The notes beneath the pieces are model-generated. The model did not search any database. It was not told where the DNA came from and worked only from the letters and a program-made list of their open reading frames with translations. The translations under genes were made by a program, and so were the position numbers. A stretch of 10,501 nt of DNA from a virus: UHGV virus genome UHGV-0105382; one strand, 5' to 3'. Shown in pieces: positions 1-10,451 of this stretch (position 1 is the first letter of the stretch; every line of letters starts with the position of its first letter).

Positions 1-10
1 ATCTTCTTTG

Positions 11-37
11 CCCTCCAATGTGAGGGAAATTTTTTTG
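11..37 (+). terminator. Possible intrinsic terminator hairpin (CCCTC / GAGGG stem, 7-nt loop, then AAATTTTTTT)
   Basis: Seen in sequence: 5-bp GC-rich inverted repeat at 11-15 and 23-27, followed by a T7 run. Short stem and window-edge position limit confidence. Confidence 0.3.
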
Positions 38-49
38 ACGGAGTGAACG

Positions 50-298
50 ATGATAAAAACTGATTACCCTGCAGAGCTTAAACAAAAAGTAATAACAGCA
101 ATTAAATGCTCTTTTATCTCATGTCGTACAGATGAAGAACGATATGTCGTTGAGTGTGCAATTGTCGAGTTTCTCACAGCGATGGAATTTACCGCTGCAG
201 AATCAATAGATGTATTAAAGCAATCAGACGGAAATGATATTGAAACGGATGATGTTATTGACCGACTAATAAAATCATTCGAAGAAGAAATAGAGTAG
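50..298 (+). CDS. Hypothetical small acidic protein (82 aa, about 20 Asp/Glu against 9 Lys/Arg)
   Basis: ORF with GGAG at 40-43 six nt before the ATG. Sits upstream of the cIII-like gene, where lambda carries ral/ea10. No family recognised. Confidence 0.6.
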   Translation: MIKTDYPAELKQKVITAIKCSFISCRTDEERYVVECAIVEFLTAMEFTAAESIDVLKQSDGNDIETDDVIDRLIKSFEEEIE

Positions 299-381
299 CC
301 GCCTGAGCGCGGCTTTACCGCATACCAATAATGCTTCACGAGAGGCATTTTCGTTATGCAATCAAATATAAGGAGTTACCC

Positions 382-516
382 ATGATGCACTTTCAGCTCG
401 CGGGTAGCGGCGTCATGTCCGCTTTCTACCCGCACGAATCTGAATTATCACGCCGAGTTAAACAATTAATCAGAGCAGCAAAGAAACAACTGGAGGCGTT
501 ATGCGCAATGAAATAG
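382..516 (+). CDS. cIII: cIII-like protein (putative FtsH inhibitor), 44 aa
   Basis: AGGAG at 371-375, ATG at 382. The translation MMHFQLAGSGVMSAFYPHESELSRRVKQLIR resembles my recollection of lambda cIII (MQYAIAGWPVAGCPSESLLERITRKLR). Position relative to the Kil-like and recombination genes matches lambda. The longer ORF from 331 has no RBS. Confidence 0.55.
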   Translation: MMHFQLAGSGVMSAFYPHESELSRRVKQLIRAAKKQLEALCAMK

Positions 517-653
517 CCATTAATCACCAGATGCTTCGTGCTGCACAAAACAAAGCAGTAATAGCCCGATTTATTGGTGATTCAAAAATGTGGCTTGAAG
601 CAAATAAAGCGATGAAATCAGCTATCAACCTTCCATGGTATCGCAGGAAATGA
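501..653 (+). CDS. kil: Kil-like small protein (putative host cell-division inhibitor), 50 aa
   Basis: ORF not in the supplied track (under 60 aa). GGAGG at 492-496, ATG at 501, 16-nt overlap with the cIII-like 3' end as in lambda. The motif AAQNKAVIARFIGDSKMWLEANKAMK resembles what I recall of lambda Kil (AIQTKFTIATFIGDEKMFREAVDAYK). Assignment rests on memory and synteny. Confidence 0.45.
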   Translation: MRNEIAINHQMLRAAQNKAVIARFIGDSKMWLEANKAMKSAINLPWYRRK

Positions 654-808
654 GTTTTACAGATAACTGGTCAGACGAAGAATTCATTCGTCAGATGAAA
701 GAATTAATCGGTAACGAAGGAGATATTCATGTCACTTGCAACCACAGTGAAGGAGAGCAAGTTACAGAGACGCATGTACACGCAGAAAGCTCTCTGGTAT
801 CGCCATAA
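650..808 (+). CDS. Hypothetical small protein (52 aa)
   Basis: ATG overlaps the Kil-like stop (ATGA), suggesting translational coupling. No independent RBS and no recognisable family. Confidence 0.3.
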   Translation: MSFTDNWSDEEFIRQMKELIGNEGDIHVTCNHSEGEQVTETHVHAESSLVSP

Positions 809-907
809 TGGCGACCGCGAAGGAATGCGGGTATGCCTTAATTTGTCCAGAGTCGAAGTATTAAACCAGCGTTATTTCCTTGGGCCATGTCCATTCTGAG
901 GTGAATT

Positions 908-1615
908 ATGGATTTGAATAAATTCGATGAGCCATTCAGCCCTGAAGATATCGAATGGCGAATACAGCAAAGCGGTAAAACACGCGATGGCAAAGTGTGG
1001 GCTATGGTGCTGGCTTATGTCACGAACCGGGCAATCATGAAACGCCTGGACGATGTTTGCGGCAAAGCAGGATGGCGCAATGAATACCGCGATATTCCCA
1101 ACAACGGCGGCGTTGAATGCGGCATATCAATCAGGATTGATTCCGAATGGGTAACCAAATGGGATGCTGCTGAAAACACGCAGGTAGAAGCCGTCAAAGG
1201 TGGTCGTTCCGGTGCAATGAAGCGCGCTGCCGTTCAGTGGGGAATCGGTCGGTATCTGTATAACCTTGAGGAAGGTTTCGCACAAACATCTCTCGATAAA
1301 AAGCAGGGGTGGCACAGGGCAAAACTGAAGGATGGAACAGGATTTTACTGGCTCCCTCCATCGCTGCCGGGCTGGGCAATGCCAGTATCAGATAACAAAC
1401 CATCACCAGAAAATACCAACCAGAAATCTCCATCGGTTGACTGCGAGCAAATCCTGAAAGACTTCAGCGATTATGCGTCAACAGAAACTGACAAGAAAAA
1501 ACTCATCGAGCGTTATCAGCGTGACTGGCAATTAATGGCTGGCAATGAGGATGCGCAGGCTAAATGCGTTCAGGTAATGAACATCAGAGTTAACGAGCTA
1601 AAACAGGCGGCATAA
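908..1615 (+). CDS. Rad52-like single-strand annealing protein (phage recombinase, Sak/Rad52 type)
   Basis: TGAGGTG RBS at 897-903. Translation carries a Rad52-type core (GWRNEY...GGVECGISIRIDSEW...KRAAVQWGIGRYLYN), comparable to the Rad52 KRSLRGFGNALGNCLY region. Stop is directly followed by the SSB start (TAAATG). Confidence 0.75.
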   Translation: MDLNKFDEPFSPEDIEWRIQQSGKTRDGKVWAMVLAYVTNRAIMKRLDDVCGKAGWRNEYRDIPNNGGVECGISIRIDSEWVTKWDAAENTQVEAVKGGRSGAMKRAAVQWGIGRYLYNLEEGFAQTSLDKKQGWHRAKLKDGTGFYWLPPSLPGWAMPVSDNKPSPENTNQKSPSVDCEQILKDFSDYASTETDKKKLIERYQRDWQLMAGNEDAQAKCVQVMNIRVNELKQAA

Positions 1616-2119
1616 ATGGCAAGCAGAGGCGTAAATAAGGTGATCATTATTGGTCGCCTTGGGCATGATCCAGAAATCAGATATTCACCATCAGGAACGG
1701 CATTTGCAAACCTTACAGTTGCTACGTCAGAACAGTGGCGTGATAAGCAAACTGGAGAGAAAAAGGAGCAGACGGAGTGGCACCGTGTGGTAATGAGCGG
1801 GAAACTGGCAGAAATTGCCAGCGAATATCTGCGAAAAGGCTCTGAGGTTTATCTTGAAGGCAAATTGCGGACAAGAAAATGGCAGGATCAAAGCGGACAG
1901 GATCGGTTCACTACCGAAATCATCGTGGGCGTTGGTGGAACTATGCAAATGATTGGTGGCAAGCAAGGAGGCAATGAACAGTCTTCACCTCAGCGAAATA
2001 ACGGTCAGCAACCTCAGCAGCAAGGGAATCACAGCGAACCACCTATGGATTTTGACGACGATATCCCCTTTGCACCAGTAACTCTCCCCTTCCCTCGTCA
2101 CGCTATTCACGCAATTTAA
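1616..2119 (+). CDS. ssb: Single-stranded DNA-binding protein (phage SSB) with a C-terminal extension past the DDDIPF tip
   Basis: N-terminal OB fold nearly as in E. coli SSB ([16 protein letters not shown]...TEWHRVV...), Gly/Gln-rich linker, conserved MDFDDDIPF motif, then 15 more residues ([15 protein letters not shown]) before the stop. Confidence 0.9.
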
Positions 2120-2127
2120 GGACTTAC

Positions 2128-2676
2128 ATGAATCACTTGATGGTTGACCTTGAAACAATGGGCAACGGGCCATACGCGCCAGTTATTTCTATTGGGGCGG
2201 TATTCTTTGACCCGAATACCGGAGAAACAGGAGAAGAGTTCTCGGTAAATATCTCGCTTGAGTCATCAATGCGATATCGGGCGCGTCCTGACGCTTCAAC
2301 GATTTTATGGTGGATGGAACAGAGTGAAGAAGCCAGAAAATCGCTAACCAGCAACACTCAGGAGCTTTCAACGGCTCTTTCATGGTTATCTGAATTCATC
2401 ATAAAGAACGCTAACCACAAATTCGTTCAGGTTTGGGGGAATGGAGCATCATTTGACTGCGTTATTCTCCGAAACAGTTATTCGCTGACAGGGCAGCCAG
2501 TTCCGTGGCAGTGGTGGAATGACCGCGACGTAAGAACAATCGTCGAGCTTGGAAAGGTAATAGGATTCGACCCTAAGCGAGATATGCCATTCAAAGGAAC
2601 TCGCCACAACGCGCTTGATGATGCCATCCACCAAGCCAAATACGTTTCAGCAATCTGGAAAAAATTAGCTCAATAA
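2128..2676 (+). CDS. DEDDh-family (DnaQ-like) 3'-5' exonuclease
   Basis: All three exonuclease motifs are visible: Exo I (MVDLETMG), Exo II (WGNGASFDCVIL) and Exo III (HNALDDAIHQ). AAGGA RBS sits just upstream of the ATG. Confidence 0.8.
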   Translation: MNHLMVDLETMGNGPYAPVISIGAVFFDPNTGETGEEFSVNISLESSMRYRARPDASTILWWMEQSEEARKSLTSNTQELSTALSWLSEFIIKNANHKFVQVWGNGASFDCVILRNSYSLTGQPVPWQWWNDRDVRTIVELGKVIGFDPKRDMPFKGTRHNALDDAIHQAKYVSAIWKKLAQ

Positions 2677-2692
2677 TCAACAGGAGAAAAAC

Positions 2693-2986
2693 ATGCCAGC
2701 GCCTCTGTATGGTGCGGATGACCCGCGCCGCTGTTCCGGCAAATCCGTATCGGAGGTGCTGGATAAATTCAGAAAAAACTACGACCTGATAATATCGCTA
2801 CCGAAGGAAACGAAAGAGGAAAAGGAATTTCGCCATTGTATATGGCTTGCAGAGAAAGAAGAACGCGAGCGAATTTACCAGACATCAATCCGACCATTCC
2901 GCAAAGCCGCATATACCCACTTCCCTGAAATTGACCCGCGTCTGCGTAATTACCGCTCACGCTATGGCGCTATCAGTAATGACTGA
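2693..2986 (+). CDS. Hypothetical protein (97 aa)
   Basis: AGGAG at 2683-2687, ATG at 2693. No recognisable motif. Basic and Glu-rich. Confidence 0.6.
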   Translation: MPAPLYGADDPRRCSGKSVSEVLDKFRKNYDLIISLPKETKEEKEFRHCIWLAEKEERERIYQTSIRPFRKAAYTHFPEIDPRLRNYRSRYGAISND

Positions 2987-2996
2987 GGAATTAACA

Positions 2997-3287
2997 ATGA
3001 AAACAATGAAGCTAAACATCGGCCTCGGCAAATACGTTATTACCGGAACCAAACACGACCTGATTCTTAGCGAAAGAGGAATTATCAAAGAAGGCGAGAA
3101 TGCAGGGAAAGAAACACTAAGCCGTATCGGTTATTACAGCAAGTTTGAGCATCTGGTTAAAGAGTTATGCAACCGTGAACTCCTGTTATCTCAGGCGCAG
3201 ACGCTACAGGATATTCAGCAGCATATCGAGACATTAGGTGTGTCACTTAGCATGGCTATTGACCAGTTCGTTGAGAGTAAATCATGA
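2997..3287 (+). CDS. Hypothetical protein (96 aa)
   Basis: GAGGA at 2985-2989, ATG at 2997 (MKTMKLNIG...). The track's longer ORF from 2847 overlaps the preceding gene in another frame and has no RBS, so the internal start is preferred. Confidence 0.6.
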
Positions 3288-3451
3288 GAGGACTTGCATA
3301 CAATCCCGGCATTCTTCCGGCAGAAATGATTATTCGCCAACGCGTAAAGCCAATGCCATCGAGAGAGGAATTGCTTAAGAGAAAGAGTTTCGGTTCTGTT
3401 AATGACAACAAATATCTGAATGCGATGTTGCGCAAAGGAGGCAACCAATGA
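3284..3451 (+). CDS. Hypothetical small basic protein (55 aa)
   Basis: Not in the supplied track (under 60 aa). ATGA overlaps at both ends (3284-3287 and 3448-3451) and it exactly fills the gap between neighbours. Translation [55 protein letters not shown]. Confidence 0.4.
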
Positions 3452-3801
3452 GCAAGATTGACTATCAGGCACTGCGTGAAAAGGCAGAGAAAGCAACGTG
3501 TGGTGTGTGGTCGCTCGAATATGGAGAGAGCCGATTTGATTGTGATGATGCGCTAATTCATCGTGACGTTGTTGGATATCTTCCCATTTGCAGAATTGAA
3601 GGAGCGCATCCTGAAAGCGGTTTCGATGAAGATTTCCAAATGGAACAGCAGGCCAATGCTGAATTCATCGCCGCAGCCAATCCGGCTACTGTGCTGGCAC
3701 TACTGGATGAAAACGAAAGACTGTGTCGCGAGCTGATAGCTCGTAATGGTGAGATTGAAGGGCTTCGGAAGTGGGCAGAAGAACGGGAGATGCAACCATG
3801 A
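3448..3801 (+). CDS. Ead/Ea22-like protein (117 aa)
   Basis: AGGAGG at 3436-3441. N-terminal module ([18 protein letters not shown] ... [24 protein letters not shown]) recurs in the next gene and matches my recollection of the Ead/Ea22-like family of lambdoid early-left regions. Confidence 0.65.
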
Positions 3802-4727
3802 TGACTTTTACCAGCGAACAATTAGCTACCTTACGTAAGATAGCGCAACAGGCAACACAGGGCGAATGGCGTGCATTCATCTCGCCGGACACTGGTACAT
3901 ATGCGGTGCATACGCCGGGGGATGAACGTTGCGGAGACATTATCAAATGGCCTGGCTTTGACGACCAGAAAAATGCAGAGAACAACGCAGAATTTATCGC
4001 AGCTTTCAACCCTAAATTAGTGCAGACACTGCTGGATGAACGGGAAAGAAACCAGCAATACATCAAATCACGCGACCAGGAGAACGAGGATATTGCGCTA
4101 ACGGTAGGGAAGCTGCGCGTTGAGCTTGAGGAGGTGAGAGCAAAACTCAATGAACAACGCGAGTATTACGAGGGAGTAATCGCGGATGGAAGGAAGCACA
4201 TAGCAGAACTGGAAAAACAATGCGCCGAATGGGAGCGAAAAGCATTAAGCAACTTTGAAGAGTGTGCTGCGATGGCTGAACGTATCGAAGAGATGCAGAC
4301 AAAATCTGCACCAGATTCGTTTGGCATCATCGGTGAAAATATTCGAACACAGGATAATCGAATAACGTCAGATCCTATGTTTTGTGTGTATCAAAAGCGC
4401 GAAATCGTTGTTGATGCTGATTATGACTATGACCGGATTGTCTGGGTTGATGAAGATGGCAATGAAGCCAATAAACTCCAAAGTCGTCGTCTCGAACTAC
4501 TTCATGAAAACTTTCGGGAGCCACCAGAAAAATGGCGGCGCGTTGCTGTGAAAGATATTGATGAATTCGTTACCTGCTGTTTCACCGAACAGGGTTGTAA
4601 AGACTACCTGGCAGCCAATGGTCACAATCTTCGCTTGCCATTTATATATGTAAAAAGCGGTTTCAGGAACGCTGAATATATCGGCATAAGAAACTGGCTT
4701 GCTGGTATTCGCATCAAAGGAGACTGA
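3798..4727 (+). CDS. Ead/Ea22-like protein, long form (309 aa) with coiled-coil middle and distinct Cys-containing C-terminal domain
   Basis: GGGAGA at 3785-3790, ATG at 3798 overlapping the previous stop (ATGATGA). N-terminal module (EQLATLRKIAQQATQGEW ... NNAEFIAAFNPKLVQTLLDERER) is paralogous to the preceding gene. The track's GTG start at 3771 is less likely. Confidence 0.7.
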   Translation: MMTFTSEQLATLRKIAQQATQGEWRAFISPDTGTYAVHTPGDERCGDIIKWPGFDDQKNAENNAEFIAAFNPKLVQTLLDERERNQQYIKSRDQENEDIALTVGKLRVELEEVRAKLNEQREYYEGVIADGRKHIAELEKQCAEWERKALSNFEECAAMAERIEEMQTKSAPDSFGIIGENIRTQDNRITSDPMFCVYQKREIVVDADYDYDRIVWVDEDGNEANKLQSRRLELLHENFREPPEKWRRVAVKDIDEFVTCCFTEQGCKDYLAANGHNLRLPFIYVKSGFRNAEYIGIRNWLAGIRIKGD

Positions 4728-4728
4728 T

Positions 4729-4938
4729 ATGGCTATTGCCGCAAGTTACACCATGCATCTCTATTGTGATTGTCGCCAGTGTACGGAAGGTGTATATCCA
4801 GTGCCAGACTTCGGTGAGTATATCGGTACGTCATGGTCTGGTTGTGCAAAAGAGGCCCGTAAAGACGGGTGGCGAATAAGCAAAGACAAAACACGTACTT
4901 TTGCGCCCGGGCATAAAGTTTTGAGGATTAACACATGA
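4729..4938 (+). CDS. Hypothetical Cys-rich small protein (69 aa, C-x-C-x2-C ... C; possible zinc ribbon)
   Basis: AAGGAGA at 4717-4723, ATG at 4729. Stop overlaps the next start (ATGA at 4935-4938). Motif HLYCDCRQC plus a later WSGC. Confidence 0.55.
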   Translation: MAIAASYTMHLYCDCRQCTEGVYPVPDFGEYIGTSWSGCAKEARKDGWRISKDKTRTFAPGHKVLRINT

Positions 4939-5708
4939 CCACTATTACCAAAGAACGTATTGAATTGTTCATTAAAAATCCGCTTGAAAACGGGCTTACT
5001 CGTGGCGAACAAATGGAACTGGCACGAATTGCACTGGCATCACTGGAACGCGAACTGATTCGCCACGAGCATGCCAAATGGTCTGACTCCACATTTGGCT
5101 GCGTTGGCCCCATTGGTCCACTGAAACACCTCTCAAAAGAGGCTCTGGAAGCCGCAGCCGAACCAGACGATCTCAGCGAGTGGGCTGATATGCATTTCCT
5201 GTTGTGGGATGCACAGCGCCGTGCTGGCATCAGCGATGCTGAAATTACCGCTGCTATGGAAGATAAATTGAAGATCAACATGGAGCGCCAGTGGCCTGAA
5301 CCAAAAGATGGTGAGCCTCGCTTGCACATTAAAGAACCCGGCAACTCTCCGGTAATTCCGGATGGTTTATCCACGGTATGCGCTGAGGCTTATCAGGTTG
5401 TAGGAGTTATGGCAGATGCGCTTGGTGTATTCGGTGATGCAGCAGTACAGAAAGTTCTGGATAACCTGTCACAGCAAAAACTTGTTCACAGAGATGTGCT
5501 GCCGTTCTCGCTTCCGGTAACTCCGGATGGTTGGATAAGCTGTAGTGATCGAATGCCGAACGACGCGCAGTGGTGCGTAGTGAACACAGAATACGGGTAT
5601 TACGTGCAATGCTGGTCTGAAGGTCAAGGGTGGCTTGGTGATGATATCAGCATCCCTAAATGCGATGTAATCAATTGGATGCCTCTACCAGAACCGCCGC
5701 AGGGGTGA
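4935..5708 (+). CDS. Two-domain prophage protein: N-terminal DUF550-type (dATP/dGTP pyrophosphohydrolase-like) domain and C-terminal DUF551 domain
   Basis: GAGGA at 4923-4927. The C-terminus (GWISCSDRMP...WCVV...DVINWMPLPEPPQG) matches the DUF551 signature as I recall it (W..[SC].DRLP ... W ... HWMPLPEPP). The N-terminal half (EWADMHFLLWDAQRRAGISDAEITAAMEDKLKINMERQWPEP) resembles the MazG-like pyrophosphohydrolase domain often fused to DUF551. Family names are from memory. Confidence 0.7.
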   Translation: MTTITKERIELFIKNPLENGLTRGEQMELARIALASLERELIRHEHAKWSDSTFGCVGPIGPLKHLSKEALEAAAEPDDLSEWADMHFLLWDAQRRAGISDAEITAAMEDKLKINMERQWPEPKDGEPRLHIKEPGNSPVIPDGLSTVCAEAYQVVGVMADALGVFGDAAVQKVLDNLSQQKLVHRDVLPFSLPVTPDGWISCSDRMPNDAQWCVVNTEYGYYVQCWSEGQGWLGDDISIPKCDVINWMPLPEPPQG

Positions 5709-5774
5709 AATGATGCTTGGCCTGAAGTATTTTATGTAATTGGTATTGCTATATTTTTATCTGGGGATAAACGA

Positions 5775-6017
5775 ATGTTCTCTCTGATTCAACGTGGTCA
5801 GATATACACCGATAGCGCTGGCTATCCAGTAAAAATCATTCGTAGTACTGATCACTCAGTATTCTTCAAGAGGATGGATGGCTATCCTGGAAGAGTGTGC
5901 ATCAGAAAATTCAATAATTTATTCGAACACATTGATCACAGAGAATATCACCAGATCCTGGCTGAAACAGAACAGGAGAACCATCTGAAAAAATTACGTG
6001 CTATGCAAAGGAGATAA
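5775..6017 (+). CDS. Hypothetical small protein (80 aa), possibly DUF4222-like
   Basis: GGGGA 7 nt upstream of the ATG. The pattern IQRGQIY.D..GYPVKII...DHSVFFKRMDGYPGRVCIRKF resembles small prophage proteins I recall under DUF4222; the family call is low confidence. Confidence 0.55.
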   Translation: MFSLIQRGQIYTDSAGYPVKIIRSTDHSVFFKRMDGYPGRVCIRKFNNLFEHIDHREYHQILAETEQENHLKKLRAMQRR

Positions 6018-6097
6018 ACCGGTAAAGGTGTTCGCGATAAAGGTGAATATCGGCAATGAATAACAATCCTCGAACTCGCGGGGATTTCTTTTATCTG

Positions 6098-6122
6098 AAC
6101 TCGCTACGGCGAGTTTTGTTTT
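6098..6122 (+). terminator. Putative intrinsic terminator (7-bp stem AACTCGC / GCGAGTT, loop TACG, then TTGTTTT)
   Basis: Seen in sequence: perfect 7-bp inverted repeat followed by a U-rich tract, about 80 nt after the 5775..6017 stop. Confidence 0.4.
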
Positions 6123-6135
6123 ATGGAGATGATAA

Positions 6136-6303
6136 ATGCACTTCCGAGTCACAGGTGAATGGAATGGAGAGCCATTCGACAGGGTTATCGAAGCAGAGGA
6201 CATCAACGACTGCTATAACCACTGGATGATATGGGCGCAGATAGCGCATGCAGACGTAACCAATATTCGAATTGAAGAACTGAAAGAACACCAAGCCGCC
6301 TGA
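6136..6303 (+). CDS. Hypothetical small protein (55 aa)
   Basis: Not in the supplied track (under 60 aa). GGAG at 6125-6128 seven nt before the ATG. Translation MHFRVTGEWNGEPFDRVIEAEDINDCYNHWMIWAQIAHADVTNIRIEELKEHQAA. Stop codon lies in the loop of the next terminator. Confidence 0.45.
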   Translation: MHFRVTGEWNGEPFDRVIEAEDINDCYNHWMIWAQIAHADVTNIRIEELKEHQAA

Positions 6304-6316
6304 TGGCGGTTTTTTC
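6293..6316 (+). terminator. Putative intrinsic terminator (stem GCCGCC / GGCGG(T), loop TGAT, then TTTTTT)
   Basis: Seen in sequence: GC-rich 5-6 bp stem followed by T6, directly upstream of the cII-box/xis region. Confidence 0.55.
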
Positions 6317-6352
6317 TTGCGTGTAATTGCGGAGACTTTGCGATGTACTTAA
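6317..6352 (+). promoter_or_regulatory. pI-like cII-dependent promoter (TTGC-N6-TTGC box overlapping the xis start)
   Basis: TTGC at 6317-6320 and 6327-6330 with a 6-nt spacer, the direct-repeat architecture of lambda cII sites. The surrounding sequence (TTGCGTGTAATTGCGGAGACTTTGCGATGTAC) matches what I recall of the lambda pI/xis region. Confidence 0.5.
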
Positions 6353-6561
6353 CACTTCAGGAGTGGAACGCACGCCAGCGGCGCCCAAGAAGCCTTGAAA
6401 CAGTTCGTCGATGGGTACGCGAGTGCAGGATATTCCCTCCTCCGGTTAAGGATGGAAGAGAGTATCTGTTCCACGAATCAGCGGTAAAGGTTGACTTAAA
6501 TCGACCAGTAACAGGTAGCCTTTTGAAGAGGATCAGAAATGGGAAGAAGGCGAAGTCATGA
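6343..6561 (+). CDS. xis: Excisionase Xis (lambda-type, 72 aa)
   Basis: Translation MYLTLQEWNARQRRPRSLETVRRWVRECRIFPPPVKDGREYLFHESAVKVDLNRPVTG... is essentially the lambda Xis sequence as I recall it. GGAG at 6331-6334. 3' end overlaps the int start as in lambda. Confidence 0.95.
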   Translation: MYLTLQEWNARQRRPRSLETVRRWVRECRIFPPPVKDGREYLFHESAVKVDLNRPVTGSLLKRIRNGKKAKS

Positions 6562-7612
6562 GCGCCGGGATTTACCTCCTAACCTTTATATAAGAAACAA
6601 TGGATATTACTGCTACAGGGACCCAAGGACGGGTAAAGAGTTTGGATTAGGCCGAGACAGGAGGATAGCAATCACTGAAGCTATACAGGCCAACATTGAG
6701 TTACTCTCAGACAGCGGACGCAAATCACTGATAGACAGAATTAAAGGCGGTGACGCAATCACTCTTCATGTGTGGCTTGACCGATATGAAAGAATCCTCA
6801 CCGAAAGGGGGATCAGGCCGAAAACTCTACTCGACTACGCCAGCAAAATCAGGGCAATCCGAAGAAAATTGCCGGACAAACCGCTCACTGACATATCAAC
6901 GAAAGAAGTGGCAGCAATGCTAAACACCTACGTAGCAGAAGGTAAAGCAGCTTCCGCAAAATTAATCAGGTCAACCCTTGTTGACGTTTTTCGTGAAGCA
7001 ATAGCCGAGGGGCATGTGGCAACGAATCCGGTAACAGCAACCCGTACAGCAAAGTCAGAAGTAAGGCGCTCAAGGCTGACAGCTAATGAGTATGTCGAGA
7101 TTTACCATGCAGCCGAACCTCTCCCTATCTGGCTAAGGCTGGCGATGGATTTGGCCGTCGTTACAGGGCAGAGAGTCGGCGATTTGTGCAGAATGAAATG
7201 GTCAGACATAAACGACAACCATCTTCACATTGAACAGAGTAAAACAGGGGCTAAACTCGCCATTCCGCTAATGCTAACGATTGACGCGCTCAATATCTCA
7301 TTGGCTGATACACTACAGAAATGCAGGGATGCCAGCAGCAGTGAAACTATAATCGCATCAAAGCATCACGATCCGCTTTCCCCGAAAACAGTATCAAAGT
7401 ATTTTACAAAGGCGAGAAATGCATCTGGACTCTCATTTGATGGAAACCCGCCAACATTCCATGAACTGCGTAGCCTGTCAGCGAGGCTATACCGGAACCA
7501 GATTGGCGATAAGTTTGCTCAACGTCTTCTCGGGCATAAATCAGATTCAATGGCGGCGCGGTATAGGGACAGCCGTGGACGGGAATGGGACAAAATTGAA
7601 ATCGACAAATGA
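6539..7612 (+). CDS. int: Tyrosine integrase, lambda Int family (357 aa)
   Basis: N-terminal arm-binding domain matches lambda Int (MGRRRSHERRDLPPNLYIRNNGYYCYRDPRTGKEFGLGRDRRIAITEAIQANIEL). Catalytic residues are placed as in lambda (VVTGQRVGDL, HELRSLSARLY, LLGHKSDSMAARYRD, C-terminus REWDKIEIDK). The central core-binding region differs from lambda. Confidence 0.95.
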   Translation: MGRRRSHERRDLPPNLYIRNNGYYCYRDPRTGKEFGLGRDRRIAITEAIQANIELLSDSGRKSLIDRIKGGDAITLHVWLDRYERILTERGIRPKTLLDYASKIRAIRRKLPDKPLTDISTKEVAAMLNTYVAEGKAASAKLIRSTLVDVFREAIAEGHVATNPVTATRTAKSEVRRSRLTANEYVEIYHAAEPLPIWLRLAMDLAVVTGQRVGDLCRMKWSDINDNHLHIEQSKTGAKLAIPLMLTIDALNISLADTLQKCRDASSSETIIASKHHDPLSPKTVSKYFTKARNASGLSFDGNPPTFHELRSLSARLYRNQIGDKFAQRLLGHKSDSMAARYRDSRGREWDKIEIDK

Positions 7613-7706
7613 TTTTATTTTGACTAATAATGACCTGCTTACATTAATTCATTGATAATAAAAGAGATTTCAAATATACAACTTATTCACCTTAAGTGCA
7701 CCGACC
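7613..7706. other. attL-like region: tandem arm-type Int sites, IHF consensus, then the phage/host junction (exact core not determinable)
   Basis: The reverse complement of 7613-7640 reads AGGTCATTATTAGTCAAAATAAAA, close to lambda P'-arm sites (GGTCACTATCAGTCAAAATAAAAT as I recall). The reverse complement of 7644-7656 is TATCAATGAATTA, matching the IHF consensus WATCAANNNNTTR at the position of lambda H'. Confidence 0.6.
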
Positions 7707-10451
7707 GTGAATTTAACCCTGACCCGAAGACTCTGGATGGGCTTTGCCCTGATGGCGCTGTTAACCCTGACCAGTACCCTGGTGGGATGGTACAACCTGC
7801 GCTTTATCAGCCAGGTGGAAAAAGACAACACTCAGGCATTGATTCCTACCATGAATATGGCGCGCCAGTTGAGCGAAGCCAGCGCCTGGGAACTTTTCGC
7901 CGCGCAGAACCTGACCAGTGCCGATAACGAAAAGATGTGGCAGGCGCAGGGGCGAATGCTCACCGCACAAAGCCTGAAGATTAATGCGTTGCTGCAAGCA
8001 TTACGGGAACAAGGTTTTGATACCACCGCTATTGAACATCAGGAGCAGGAGATCTCCCGTTCGTTACGTCAGCAAGGGGAACTGGTGGGACAGCGTTTGC
8101 AACTGCGCCAGCAACAACAGCGACTCAGTCAGCAGATAGTCGCCGCCGCCGATGAAATCGCACGCCTGGCGCAAGGTCAGGCGAATAATGCGGCAACTTC
8201 CGCCGGAGCGACCCAGGCCGGGATTTACGATTTGATCGAACAACATCAGCGTCAGGCCGCAGAAAGTGCACTCGATCGGCTGATTGATATCGATCTTGAG
8301 TATGTTAACCAGATGAATGAACTGCGCCTTAGCGCCCTGCGGGTGCAGCAAATGGTGATGAATCTGGGGTTGGAACAGATCCAGAAAAATGCGCCAACGC
8401 TGGAAAAGCAGCTCAATAATGCGGTGAAAATTCTGCAACGTCGGCAAATACGCATTGAAGATCCGGGAGTTCGTGCTCAGGTCGCAACAACGTTAACTTC
8501 CGTTAGCCAATATAGCGATTTGCTGGCGCTGTATCAGCAGGACAGTGAAATCAGCAATCGCCTGCAAACTCTCGCCCAAAATAACATCGCCCAGTTCGCG
8601 CAGTTTAGTAGCGAAGTCAGTCAGTTGGTCGACACCATTGAGCTGCGTAATCAGCACGGACTGGCGCATCTGGAAAAAGCCAGTGCACGCGGGCAATACA
8701 GCCTGTTATTGCTGGGGATGGTTTCACTTTGCGCACTGATTCTGATCCTCTGGCGCGTGGTTTATCGCTCAGTCACGCGTCCACTTGCCGAACAAACGCA
8801 GGCGCTGCAACGGCTGCTGGACGGTGATATCGACTCCCCTTTTCCGGAAACCGCTGGCGTGCGGGAGCTGGATACCATCGGGCGGCTGATGGATGCGTTT
8901 CGCAGCAGTGTTCATGCACTGAATCGCCACCGCGAACAGCTGGCGGCGCAGGTCAAAGCGCGTACAGCTGAATTGCAGGAGCTGGTGATAGAACACCGAC
9001 AGGCACGGGCGGAAGCAGAAAAAGCCAGCCAGGCAAAATCGGCGTTTCTGGCGGCGATGAGCCATGAGATCCGCACACCGCTGTACGGTATTCTTGGCAC
9101 CGCGCAACTGCTGGCAGATAACCCCGCACTTAATGCCCAGCGTGATGATTTGCGGGCAATTACCGACTCTGGTGAATCGTTGCTGACCATCCTCAACGAT
9201 ATTCTCGATTATTCGGCTATCGAAGCAGGCGGCAAGAATGTTTCGGTCAGCGATGAACCCTTTGAACCGCGCCCGCTGCTGGAAAGTACCCTGCAATTAA
9301 TGAGCGGAAGGGTGAAAGGTCGCCCGATTCGCCTGGCAACAGAAATTGCCGACGATGTACCGACTGCGTTAATGGGCGATCCGCGGCGTATTCGTCAGGT
9401 CATTACCAACCTGTTGAGCAACGCCCTGCGTTTTACTGACGAAGGACAGATCGTTTTACGTAGCCGCACTGATGGCGAGCAATGGCTGGTCGAAGTGGAA
9501 GACAGCGGCTGCGGTATTGATCCCGCGAAACTGGCTGAAATCTTCCAGCCATTTGTTCAGGTTAGCGGCAAACGCGGCGGCACCGGGCTGGGGCTGACCA
9601 TCAGTAGCCGTCTGGCCCAGGCGATGGGCGGCGAACTGAGCGCCACCAGCACGCCGGAAGTTGGAAGCTGTTTTTGTTTACGCTTGCCGTTACGTGTTGC
9701 CACTGCACCCGTGCCAAAAACAGTCAATCAGGCGGTGCATCTGGACGGTTTACGTTTGCTGTTAATTGAAGATAACCCGCTAACCCAGCGAATTACCGTT
9801 GAGATGCTGAACAACAGTGGGGCGCAGGTCGTTGCGGTAGGAAATGCCGCGCACGCAATAGAGACGTTGCAAAATAGCGAACCGTTTGCTGCCGCACTGG
9901 TGGATTTTGATCTGCCCGATATCGACGGCATTACGCTTGCCCGGCAACTGGCACAGCAATATCCGTCGCTGGTTTTGATTGGCTTTAGCGCTCATGTCAT
10001 CGACGAAACGTTGCGCCAGCGTACCAGTTCATTATTTCGCGGGATTATCCCTAAACCGGTGCCGCGTGAAGTGCTCGGTCAGTTACTGGCGCACTATCTC
10101 CAACTGCAAGTCAATAACGATCAACCGCTGGATGTATCGCAACTCAATGAAGATGCTCAGTTGATGGGGACGGAGAAGATCCACGAATGGCTGGCATTAT
10201 TTAAACAACATGCCCTGCCGCTTCTCGATGACATCGGCATCGCCCGCTCCAGCCAGAACAGCGAAAAAATAAAGCGTGCCGCACATCAGCTAAAAAGCAG
10301 TTGCTCGAGTCTGGGAATGCGTAGCGCCAGCCAGCTATGCGCACAACTGGAGCAGCAGCCATTATCTGCCCCCCTTCCACACGAAGAAATTACACGCAGT
10401 GTTGCCGCTCTGGAAGCATGGTTGAATAAGAAAGACCTGAACGCGATTTGA
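7707..10451 (+). CDS. torS: TMAO-responsive hybrid sensor histidine kinase TorS (914 aa from the GTG at 7707; 904 aa if started at the ATG at 7737)
   Basis: Translation matches E. coli TorS as I recall it ([22 protein letters not shown]...). Two transmembrane segments flank a periplasmic domain, followed by an H-box ([11 protein letters not shown], His codon 9063-9065), G-boxes (DSGCGI, GGTGLGL), a receiver domain (LLIEDNP; Asp codon 9903-9905 in [10 protein letters not shown]) and a C-terminal HPt (AAHQLKSS, His codon 10284-10286). Counting from the internal ATG these residues are His443, Asp723 and His850, the phosphorelay positions as I recall them for TorS. Confidence 0.95.

Follow-up and report, generated by a model that had tools for sequence, protein, structure and literature searches.

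In the lambda prophage, int reads outward across attL into the adjoining host DNA, sib/tI stays behind at attR, and on induction N-dependent readthrough from pL reaches gal, an effect called 'escape synthesis'. The lambda effect needs induction, whereas the effect described for phage HK022, the closest system to the one considered here, is at work in the quiescent lysogen. Carey et al. (2019, eLife 8:e49081, PMC6814406) found that in HK022 lysogens of E. coli the transcription of torS is driven by an outward promoter that lies inside the prophage. In that work torS-lacZ was elevated in uninduced lysogens and torT was unchanged, an omega terminator placed at attL abolished torS expression in the lysogen, and the native start sites TSS1 and TSS2 were not used. 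An HK022 attL fragment reaching from -231 to +28 gave a single sigma70 transcript in vitro, with its start inside the prophage (PMC6814406). The resulting excess of TorS over TorT keeps torCAD off in aerobic cells, so that bet hedging is lost, and anaerobic induction is kept; the natural lysogen NRG 857C has a similar phenotype (PMC6814406). Such prophages were placed in about 5% of E. coli genomes, with the authors' warning that these lysogens need not all behave alike (PMC6814406). The torS-torT region is also a recognised integration site for Stx phages.

The native torS-torT intergenic region is 82 bp long and holds P1torS and the IscR operator. Coordinates for P1torS and for a second promoter, P2torS, were derived from a figure legend in PMC13644379 and transferred to an empty-site E. 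coli strain (L001) and to the DNA analysed here. On these legend coordinates P1torS starts at L001 position 1485 and has TATGCT as its -10 element, and P2torS starts at L001 position 1527, with the -10 element TAAAGT at 1515-1520 and the -35 element TTGCGA at 1493-1498 (PMC13644379).

The window, that is, the whole 10,501-nucleotide stretch of virus genome UHGV-0105382 that was analysed, starts inside a prophage, whose far (attR) end lies beyond it. The genes flanking the junction, and the two torS starts, are as follows.

6343 to 6561, plus strand: xis, encoding an excisionase of 72 amino acids (Pfam Exc, E=3.9e-41; alignment to HK022 xis).
6539 to 7612, plus strand: int, encoding an HK022-type tyrosine integrase of 357 amino acids and directed towards torS (Pfam Phage_integrase and lambda Arm-DNA-bind_1).
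7707 to 7709, plus strand: annotated GTG start of torS, reported to be non-functional in lacZ translational fusions (PMC6814406).
7737 to 10451, plus strand: torS coding sequence from its ATG, intact, 904 amino acids (open reading frame list; Pfam).

The int stop codon is TGA at 7610-7612. Across int and xis the nucleotide identity is 95.8% to HK022 and 95-99% to H19J, mEp235, Gally and several Stx1a-converting phages. Elsewhere the prophage is a mosaic of the Sf6/N7/mEp235 type rather than of the HK022 type; it probably carries a P22-like virion module, like that of strain 165, and no stx gene was found in the part of it that the window covers. The torS gene lies on the same strand as int, and the Pfam domains of its product (TorS_sensor_domain, HAMP, HisKA, HATPase_c, Response_reg and Hpt) are those of a full-length sensor kinase. 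Two in-frame starts are available, GTG 7707 and ATG 7737, and the earlier note had admitted either as the first torS start; the ATG is borne out, but the GTG is not, since the published lacZ translational fusion was active at the ATG and inactive at the GTG, leaving the ATG as the only functional start (PMC6814406).

The int stop and the GTG are separated by 94 bp, which hold attL and nothing else. The segment from 7613 to 7706 is, judged from alignments, the attL (P'-O-B) of a lambdoid prophage with an HK022-type integrase, inserted into attB(HK022). Its parts are listed below.

7606 to 7615, minus strand: arm-type Int site P'3, AAATCATTTG, which shares bases with the int stop codon (by alignment to the lambda P' arm and to the 'int 4' binding feature of the lambda record).
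7617 to 7626, minus strand: arm-type Int site P'2, TAGTCAAAAT (lambda and HK022 alignment; nearly invariant in lysogens).
7627 to 7636, minus strand: arm-type Int site P'1, AGGTCATTAT (lambda and HK022 alignment; nearly invariant in lysogens).
7645 to 7657, minus strand: IHF site H', TATCAATGAATTA, an exact match to WATCAANNNNTTR that contains the TTGATA of the earlier note.
7679 to 7685, no strand assigned: C' core half-site CAACTTA, the final phage-specific bases (identical in HK022 attP; CAACCTT in empty attB).
7686 to 7692, no strand assigned: overlap (crossover) region O, TTCACCT, reverse complement AGGTGAA, common to attP, attB and attL.
7693 to 7699, no strand assigned: B core half-site TAAGTGC, the first host bases, of which 7693 is a host A/T polymorphism.

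Features of a lambda-type attL present in the window are a tyrosine integrase with an arm-binding domain and an adjoining excisionase, three P' sites, the IHF site H' and a core with the HK022 overlap. The Int arm-type and IHF sites that had been proposed for this gap hold up, since P'1-P'3 align and the IHF match is exact. The IHF consensus WATCAANNNNTTR has two matches in the window against 0.48 expected, and the one at 7645-7657 is positionally homologous to lambda H', with ATTGATAA conserved. The lambda attL (BOP') has the same Int/Xis/IHF architecture, and P'1-P'3, H' and the C' half-site TAAGTTG can all be aligned, whereas its core overlap and attB differ from those in the window.

The resemblance to HK022 in E. 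coli K-12 is closer: attB, the overlap AGGTGAA and the 73-bp distance from the int stop to the junction are shared, and int is directed into torS in both. Between the two phage arms 68 of 73 positions are identical, with substitutions at 7637, 7650, 7652, 7660 and 7671, and on the host side the base at 7693 is T in the window and A in the HK022 lysogen of K-12. The arm of NRG 857C departs from that of HK022 more than the window arm does. NRG 857C, LF82 (phage Gally) and the Stx1a-converting phages of O26 and other STEC all have an HK022-type int, with attL at the identical position. Natural torS-torT lysogens share the arm-type sites and the core with the window, and differ in a group-specific arm haplotype at 7636-7671; the window has the haplotype of strain 165, and within the published set it is closest to 266917_2, ECONIH5 and STEC299. 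The 16 distinct lysogen haplotypes taken from the published alignment vary at 7636-7671, hardly differ across 7598-7635 and 7672-7692, and agree throughout at P'3. Every row of that alignment, as a PDF, has an extra T in the run at 7613-7616; this is absent from the GenBank entry for HK022 and from the window, and was set aside as an extraction artefact.

The crossover was placed by a three-way alignment of the window with the empty-site strain and with HK022 attP (L002), and by a BLAST search with 7400-8100 as the query against 5,426 complete E. coli genomes, in which a junction was counted at a coverage of at least 80%. In nearly all genomes without the junction the match begins at query base 280 (window position 7679), and in HK022 and its relatives it stops at 7696. 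The core shared in the three-way alignment is CAACTTATTCACCT(A/T)AAG. Position 7685 is the last phage-specific base (A, where the host has T) and 7693 is the first that is able to differ on the host side; because these two bracket it, the crossover is confined to the seven bases TTCACCT at 7686-7692.

A phage origin for the T at 7693 was considered and rejected. T is common at empty sites (about 1,332 of 5,411, or about a quarter), the phage arm of strain 165 is identical to that of the window and its base at 7693 differs, and in the Stx1a_11KH263 lysogen the base after TTCACCT is T at attL and A at attR.

On this placement 73 bp of phage DNA follow the int stop, up to 7685, the same count as the published distance from int stop to junction in HK022 (PMC6814406), and host DNA makes up the last 14 bp ahead of the GTG and the last 44 bp ahead of ATG 7737. 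The prophage therefore ends 44-51 bp upstream of the ATG, and the junction lies 14-21 bp from the GTG; the earlier note was right to place it near torS, but its figure of about 95 bp is too large. The same int-attL-torS junction was detected by BLAST in 193 of the 5,426 genomes (3.6%), which argues for site-specific insertion rather than chance. A 100% match in GMF054 belongs to a prophage remnant truncated by IS911, beside which the annotated torS is intact. With the entire window as the query, coverage did not exceed 76% in any complete E. coli genome.

The position of the crossover bears directly on the native promoters. Since it lies in TTCACCT, the main promoter P1torS, the IscR operator and torT are cut off from torS and moved to attR. 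Between int and torS the alignment detected no part of the native 82-bp intergenic sequence that lies upstream of the core. No native promoter survives from the core to the start codon either, so that the refuting case set out in the earlier note does not apply; its proposal that phage DNA fills the native upstream region is borne out. In relatives, torT, P1torS and the IscR region lie beside the phage P arm at attR, about 39 kb away. An attR (B'-O-P) next to torT was seen in strain 165 and in Stx1a_11KH263, and in strain 165, the closest complete relative, a P22-like prophage puts 38.7 kb between the torT side and torS. These arrangements agree with the suggestion that a prophage-length now separates torS from its native promoter and divergent neighbour.

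The crossover falls between the -35 and -10 elements of P2torS, of which the following traces are left.

7692 to 7697, plus strand: remnant of the P2torS -10 element, TAAAGT in K-12 and TTAAGT here, with the -35 element TTGCGA replaced by phage DNA.
7703 to 7704, plus strand: equivalent of the native P2torS transcription start (G/A), reported to be unused in HK022 lysogens.

The -10 remnant has T at -11, the same as the engineered change (A-11T) that abolished P2torS. As far as the sequence can tell, P2torS is ablated by the junction.

A consensus scan of the arm gave two promoter-like sites directed at torS, and the earlier note had put forward a third.

7602 to 7631, plus strand: candidate outward promoter A, TCGACA-18-AATAAT, 10/12 (consensus scan), overlapping the int 3' end and P'1-P'3.
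7630 to 7659, plus strand: candidate outward promoter B, ATGACC-18-GATAAT, 9/12 (consensus scan), with its -10 element overlapping the IHF site H'.
7652 to 7680, plus strand: the candidate of the earlier note, TTGATA-17-TATACA, with hexamers and spacing present.

Candidate A is identical in HK022 and nearly invariant among lysogens. Candidate B is conserved in HK022, and its -10 element varies among lysogens as GATAAT, GATAGT and GATAAC. The lambda arm has poorer hexamers, GATAGT and GATAAG, at the corresponding positions of the alignment. Two sites against 0.9 +/- 0.8 expected is not above chance. The same scan found nothing in the native intergenic region, in keeping with weak P1 and P2 promoters, and for that reason it is unable to rule promoters in or out. 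The substitutions at 7650 and 7652, and also that at 7660, fall within or beside candidate B and the IHF site, and count against HK022-like behaviour.

The earlier note gives its coordinates correctly throughout (int stop at 7612, GTG 7707, ATG 7737, TTGATA 7652-7657, a 17-bp spacer and TATACA 7675-7680). The scan left TTGATA-17-TATACA unreported because its -10 element is without T at -7. The TTGATA is the core of the IHF site H'. In HK022, where activity was mapped, the -35 element is CTGATA, and in the largest (Stx) group of lysogens the -10 element is CATACA. The predicted start, near 7687, would be in the overlap and not clearly 'within the prophage'. As a promoter, TTGATA-17-TATACA is not established.

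A terminator scan detected no terminator-like site between int and torS. The scan also misses the annotated sib/tI hairpin in HK022 attP, probably owing to a limit on loop size, so that the absence is supportive only. In HK022, sib/tI is on the P arm, beyond attP, and is therefore at attR in the prophage.

Given an arm that matches HK022 at 68 of 73 positions, the conserved promoter-like sites, the lack of a detected terminator and the published HK022 and NRG 857C experiments, it is likely that the lysogen in the window works as those two do, with torS expressed from an outward promoter in the prophage. The earlier suggestion that torS may depend on phage-derived sequence gains support from the same experiments (PMC6814406). 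We infer that this arm variant, which has five differences from HK022, behaves likewise. In this reading an HK022-type integrase inserted the prophage in the torS-torT region by crossover in TTCACCT and so split torS from P1torS, and P2torS was destroyed through loss of its -35 element to phage DNA and a -10 element with T at -11. Transcription of torS would then start most likely at a constitutive, IscR-independent sigma70 promoter that lies in the P' arm or at the 3' end of int and points outward. The transcript would cross attL into torS with no terminator between. [quoted passage not shown] The in vitro fragment that carries the published promoter corresponds to about 7506-7764 of the window, with the primer site at 7705-7725.

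A different source of torS transcripts would be readthrough from the int region or the early-left operon (pI, pL), in which case torS expression would stay very low as long as the lysogen is stable and would rise sharply once it is induced, as in lambda-driven gal escape synthesis. The orientation of int towards torS, the absence of any terminator-like structure between them and the removal of the HK022 int terminator/sib to attR in the prophage are all consistent with such readthrough, and the omega terminator at attL would block any upstream transcript and so does not tell the sources apart (PMC6814406). However, the HK022 attL fragment lacks pI and pL and still yields a defined transcript with sigma70 in vitro, and uninduced lysogens have elevated torS-lacZ even though int is repressed in them (PMC6814406). 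Readthrough is accordingly improbable as the main route, and the earlier proposal that torS may rely on readthrough from int does not stand as a requirement, as in vitro a fragment of about 200 bp is enough to promote transcription (PMC6814406). On induction, readthrough may nevertheless add to torS expression, by analogy with lambda-gal escape synthesis.

Transcription could also begin at a promoter formed at the junction itself, either TTGATA-17-TATACA or a hybrid that joins phage TTCAAA (7669-7674) to host TTAAGT (7692-7697) and uses the old P2torS start. The hexamers are present at the stated spacing, and the TTGATA of the window is a better -35 element than the CTGATA of HK022. The published HK022 start, however, is 'within the prophage', and no TSS2 transcript was seen in the lysogen (PMC6814406). 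The missing T at -7 in TATACA, the CATACA of the Stx group and the identity of TTGATA with the IHF H' core weaken the first version, and the T at -11 in the hybrid -10 element weakens the second, so that a junction promoter seems very unlikely. That the junction simply silences torS and turns Tor off, on the grounds that both native promoters are removed or crippled and that an arm with five differences from HK022 might be ineffective, is hardly credible, as anaerobic induction of torCAD persists in the HK022 and NRG 857C lysogens (PMC6814406), torS is intact in the window, and the junction is kept in all 193 genomes, even in the decayed remnant.

With an outward promoter in the prophage as the preferred reading, some further regulation can be proposed, tentatively and at a low likelihood. 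Because candidate A overlaps P'1-P'3 and candidate B overlaps H', the level of IHF, which follows growth phase, and Int/Xis at induction could tune the dosage of TorS. On the same ground, the idea in the earlier note that Int or IHF binding could modulate torS is a reasonable one. The T allele at 7693, being identical to the engineered P2torS(A-11T) knockout, may likewise remove P2torS naturally at empty, phage-free sites and alter TorS/TorT noise. Neither Int/IHF tuning nor a natural P2torS T allele is taken up in PMC6814406 or PMC13644379. If true, the tuning would couple the TMAO-respiration strategy of the host to the state of the prophage.

The phenomenon was published in 2019, with its mechanism and prevalence, and has been cited since; the window is a further natural instance. 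What it adds is a different mosaic prophage, in a host with the T allele in the P2torS -10 element. For annotation, the torS start should be taken as ATG 7737, and the regulation of torS in the strain represented by the window should not be assumed to be K-12-like. The junction exemplifies the rewiring of host signalling by a prophage through promoter replacement, and not through cargo genes or gene disruption; in the cases established in 2019, HK022 and one natural isolate, the effect is to change the timing of TMAO reductase expression and to remove a bet-hedging strategy.

The base at window position 7693 (position 1516 in L001, an E. coli sequence with an empty attB site) is T, where both the K-12 attB and the HK022 attP have A. 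Of the 5,411 attB sites that are empty in complete E. coli genomes, approximately 1,332 carry the T allele, and the T in the window is, on sequence comparison, an allele of host origin. By published coordinates (PMC13644379), this base is position -11 within the -10 element of the native promoter P2torS, which is changed from TAAAGT to TTAAGT, and the window T therefore matches the engineered P2torS(A-11T) knockout exactly. Neither PMC6814406 nor PMC13644379 mentions a natural T allele at this position.

A second variant lies in the phage arm, in the interval that separates the IHF site from the core. Window position 7671 is C (TTTCAAAT), as is the corresponding position in the arm of strain 165, whereas HK022 and 14 of the 15 other published arm haplotypes have T (TTTTAAAT); the exception, haplotype 214-4, reads CCCAAAT in this stretch. 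Downstream, RefSeq still places the torS start of related genomes at the GTG (window 7707, 914 aa). The ATG at window 7737 (904 aa) is the only start backed by published translational fusions (PMC6814406), and neither start is preceded by a Shine-Dalgarno sequence.

At the other prophage end, the attR of strain 165 (L005 5443-5720; also present in L007) contains the displaced P1torS and IscR region, directed into the phage P arm. Approximately 170-200 nt downstream of the displaced promoter is an element named from the HK022 annotation:

sib/tI hairpin, P arm at attR (L005; also L007): agcgcaagg...cttgcgct, followed by a T run

The displaced host promoter probably gives rise to a short, dead-end transcript.

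The remainder of the prophage in the window is a mosaic, with N7, Sf6, mEp235 and ECP1, not HK022, as its nearest phages:

Window 1-6340: early-left prophage region, with the kil/cIII side, an Erf/Rad52-type recombinase, ssb, a 3'-5' exonuclease, abc2 and ead/Ea22

Full coverage of the window was found in no phage and no complete E. coli genome, and among complete relatives the nearest is the P22-like prophage of strain 165, which measures 38.7 kb.

A remnant of a decayed prophage is also present at the same torS site in E. coli GMF054 (L003 18817-20307). There, int is cut off by IS911, leaving its last 219 bp and the attL arm adjoining torS, and this stretch shares 100% identity with window 7400-8100. 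In this remnant, the arm next to torS, and with it the promoter that it presumably holds, has survived longer than the prophage.
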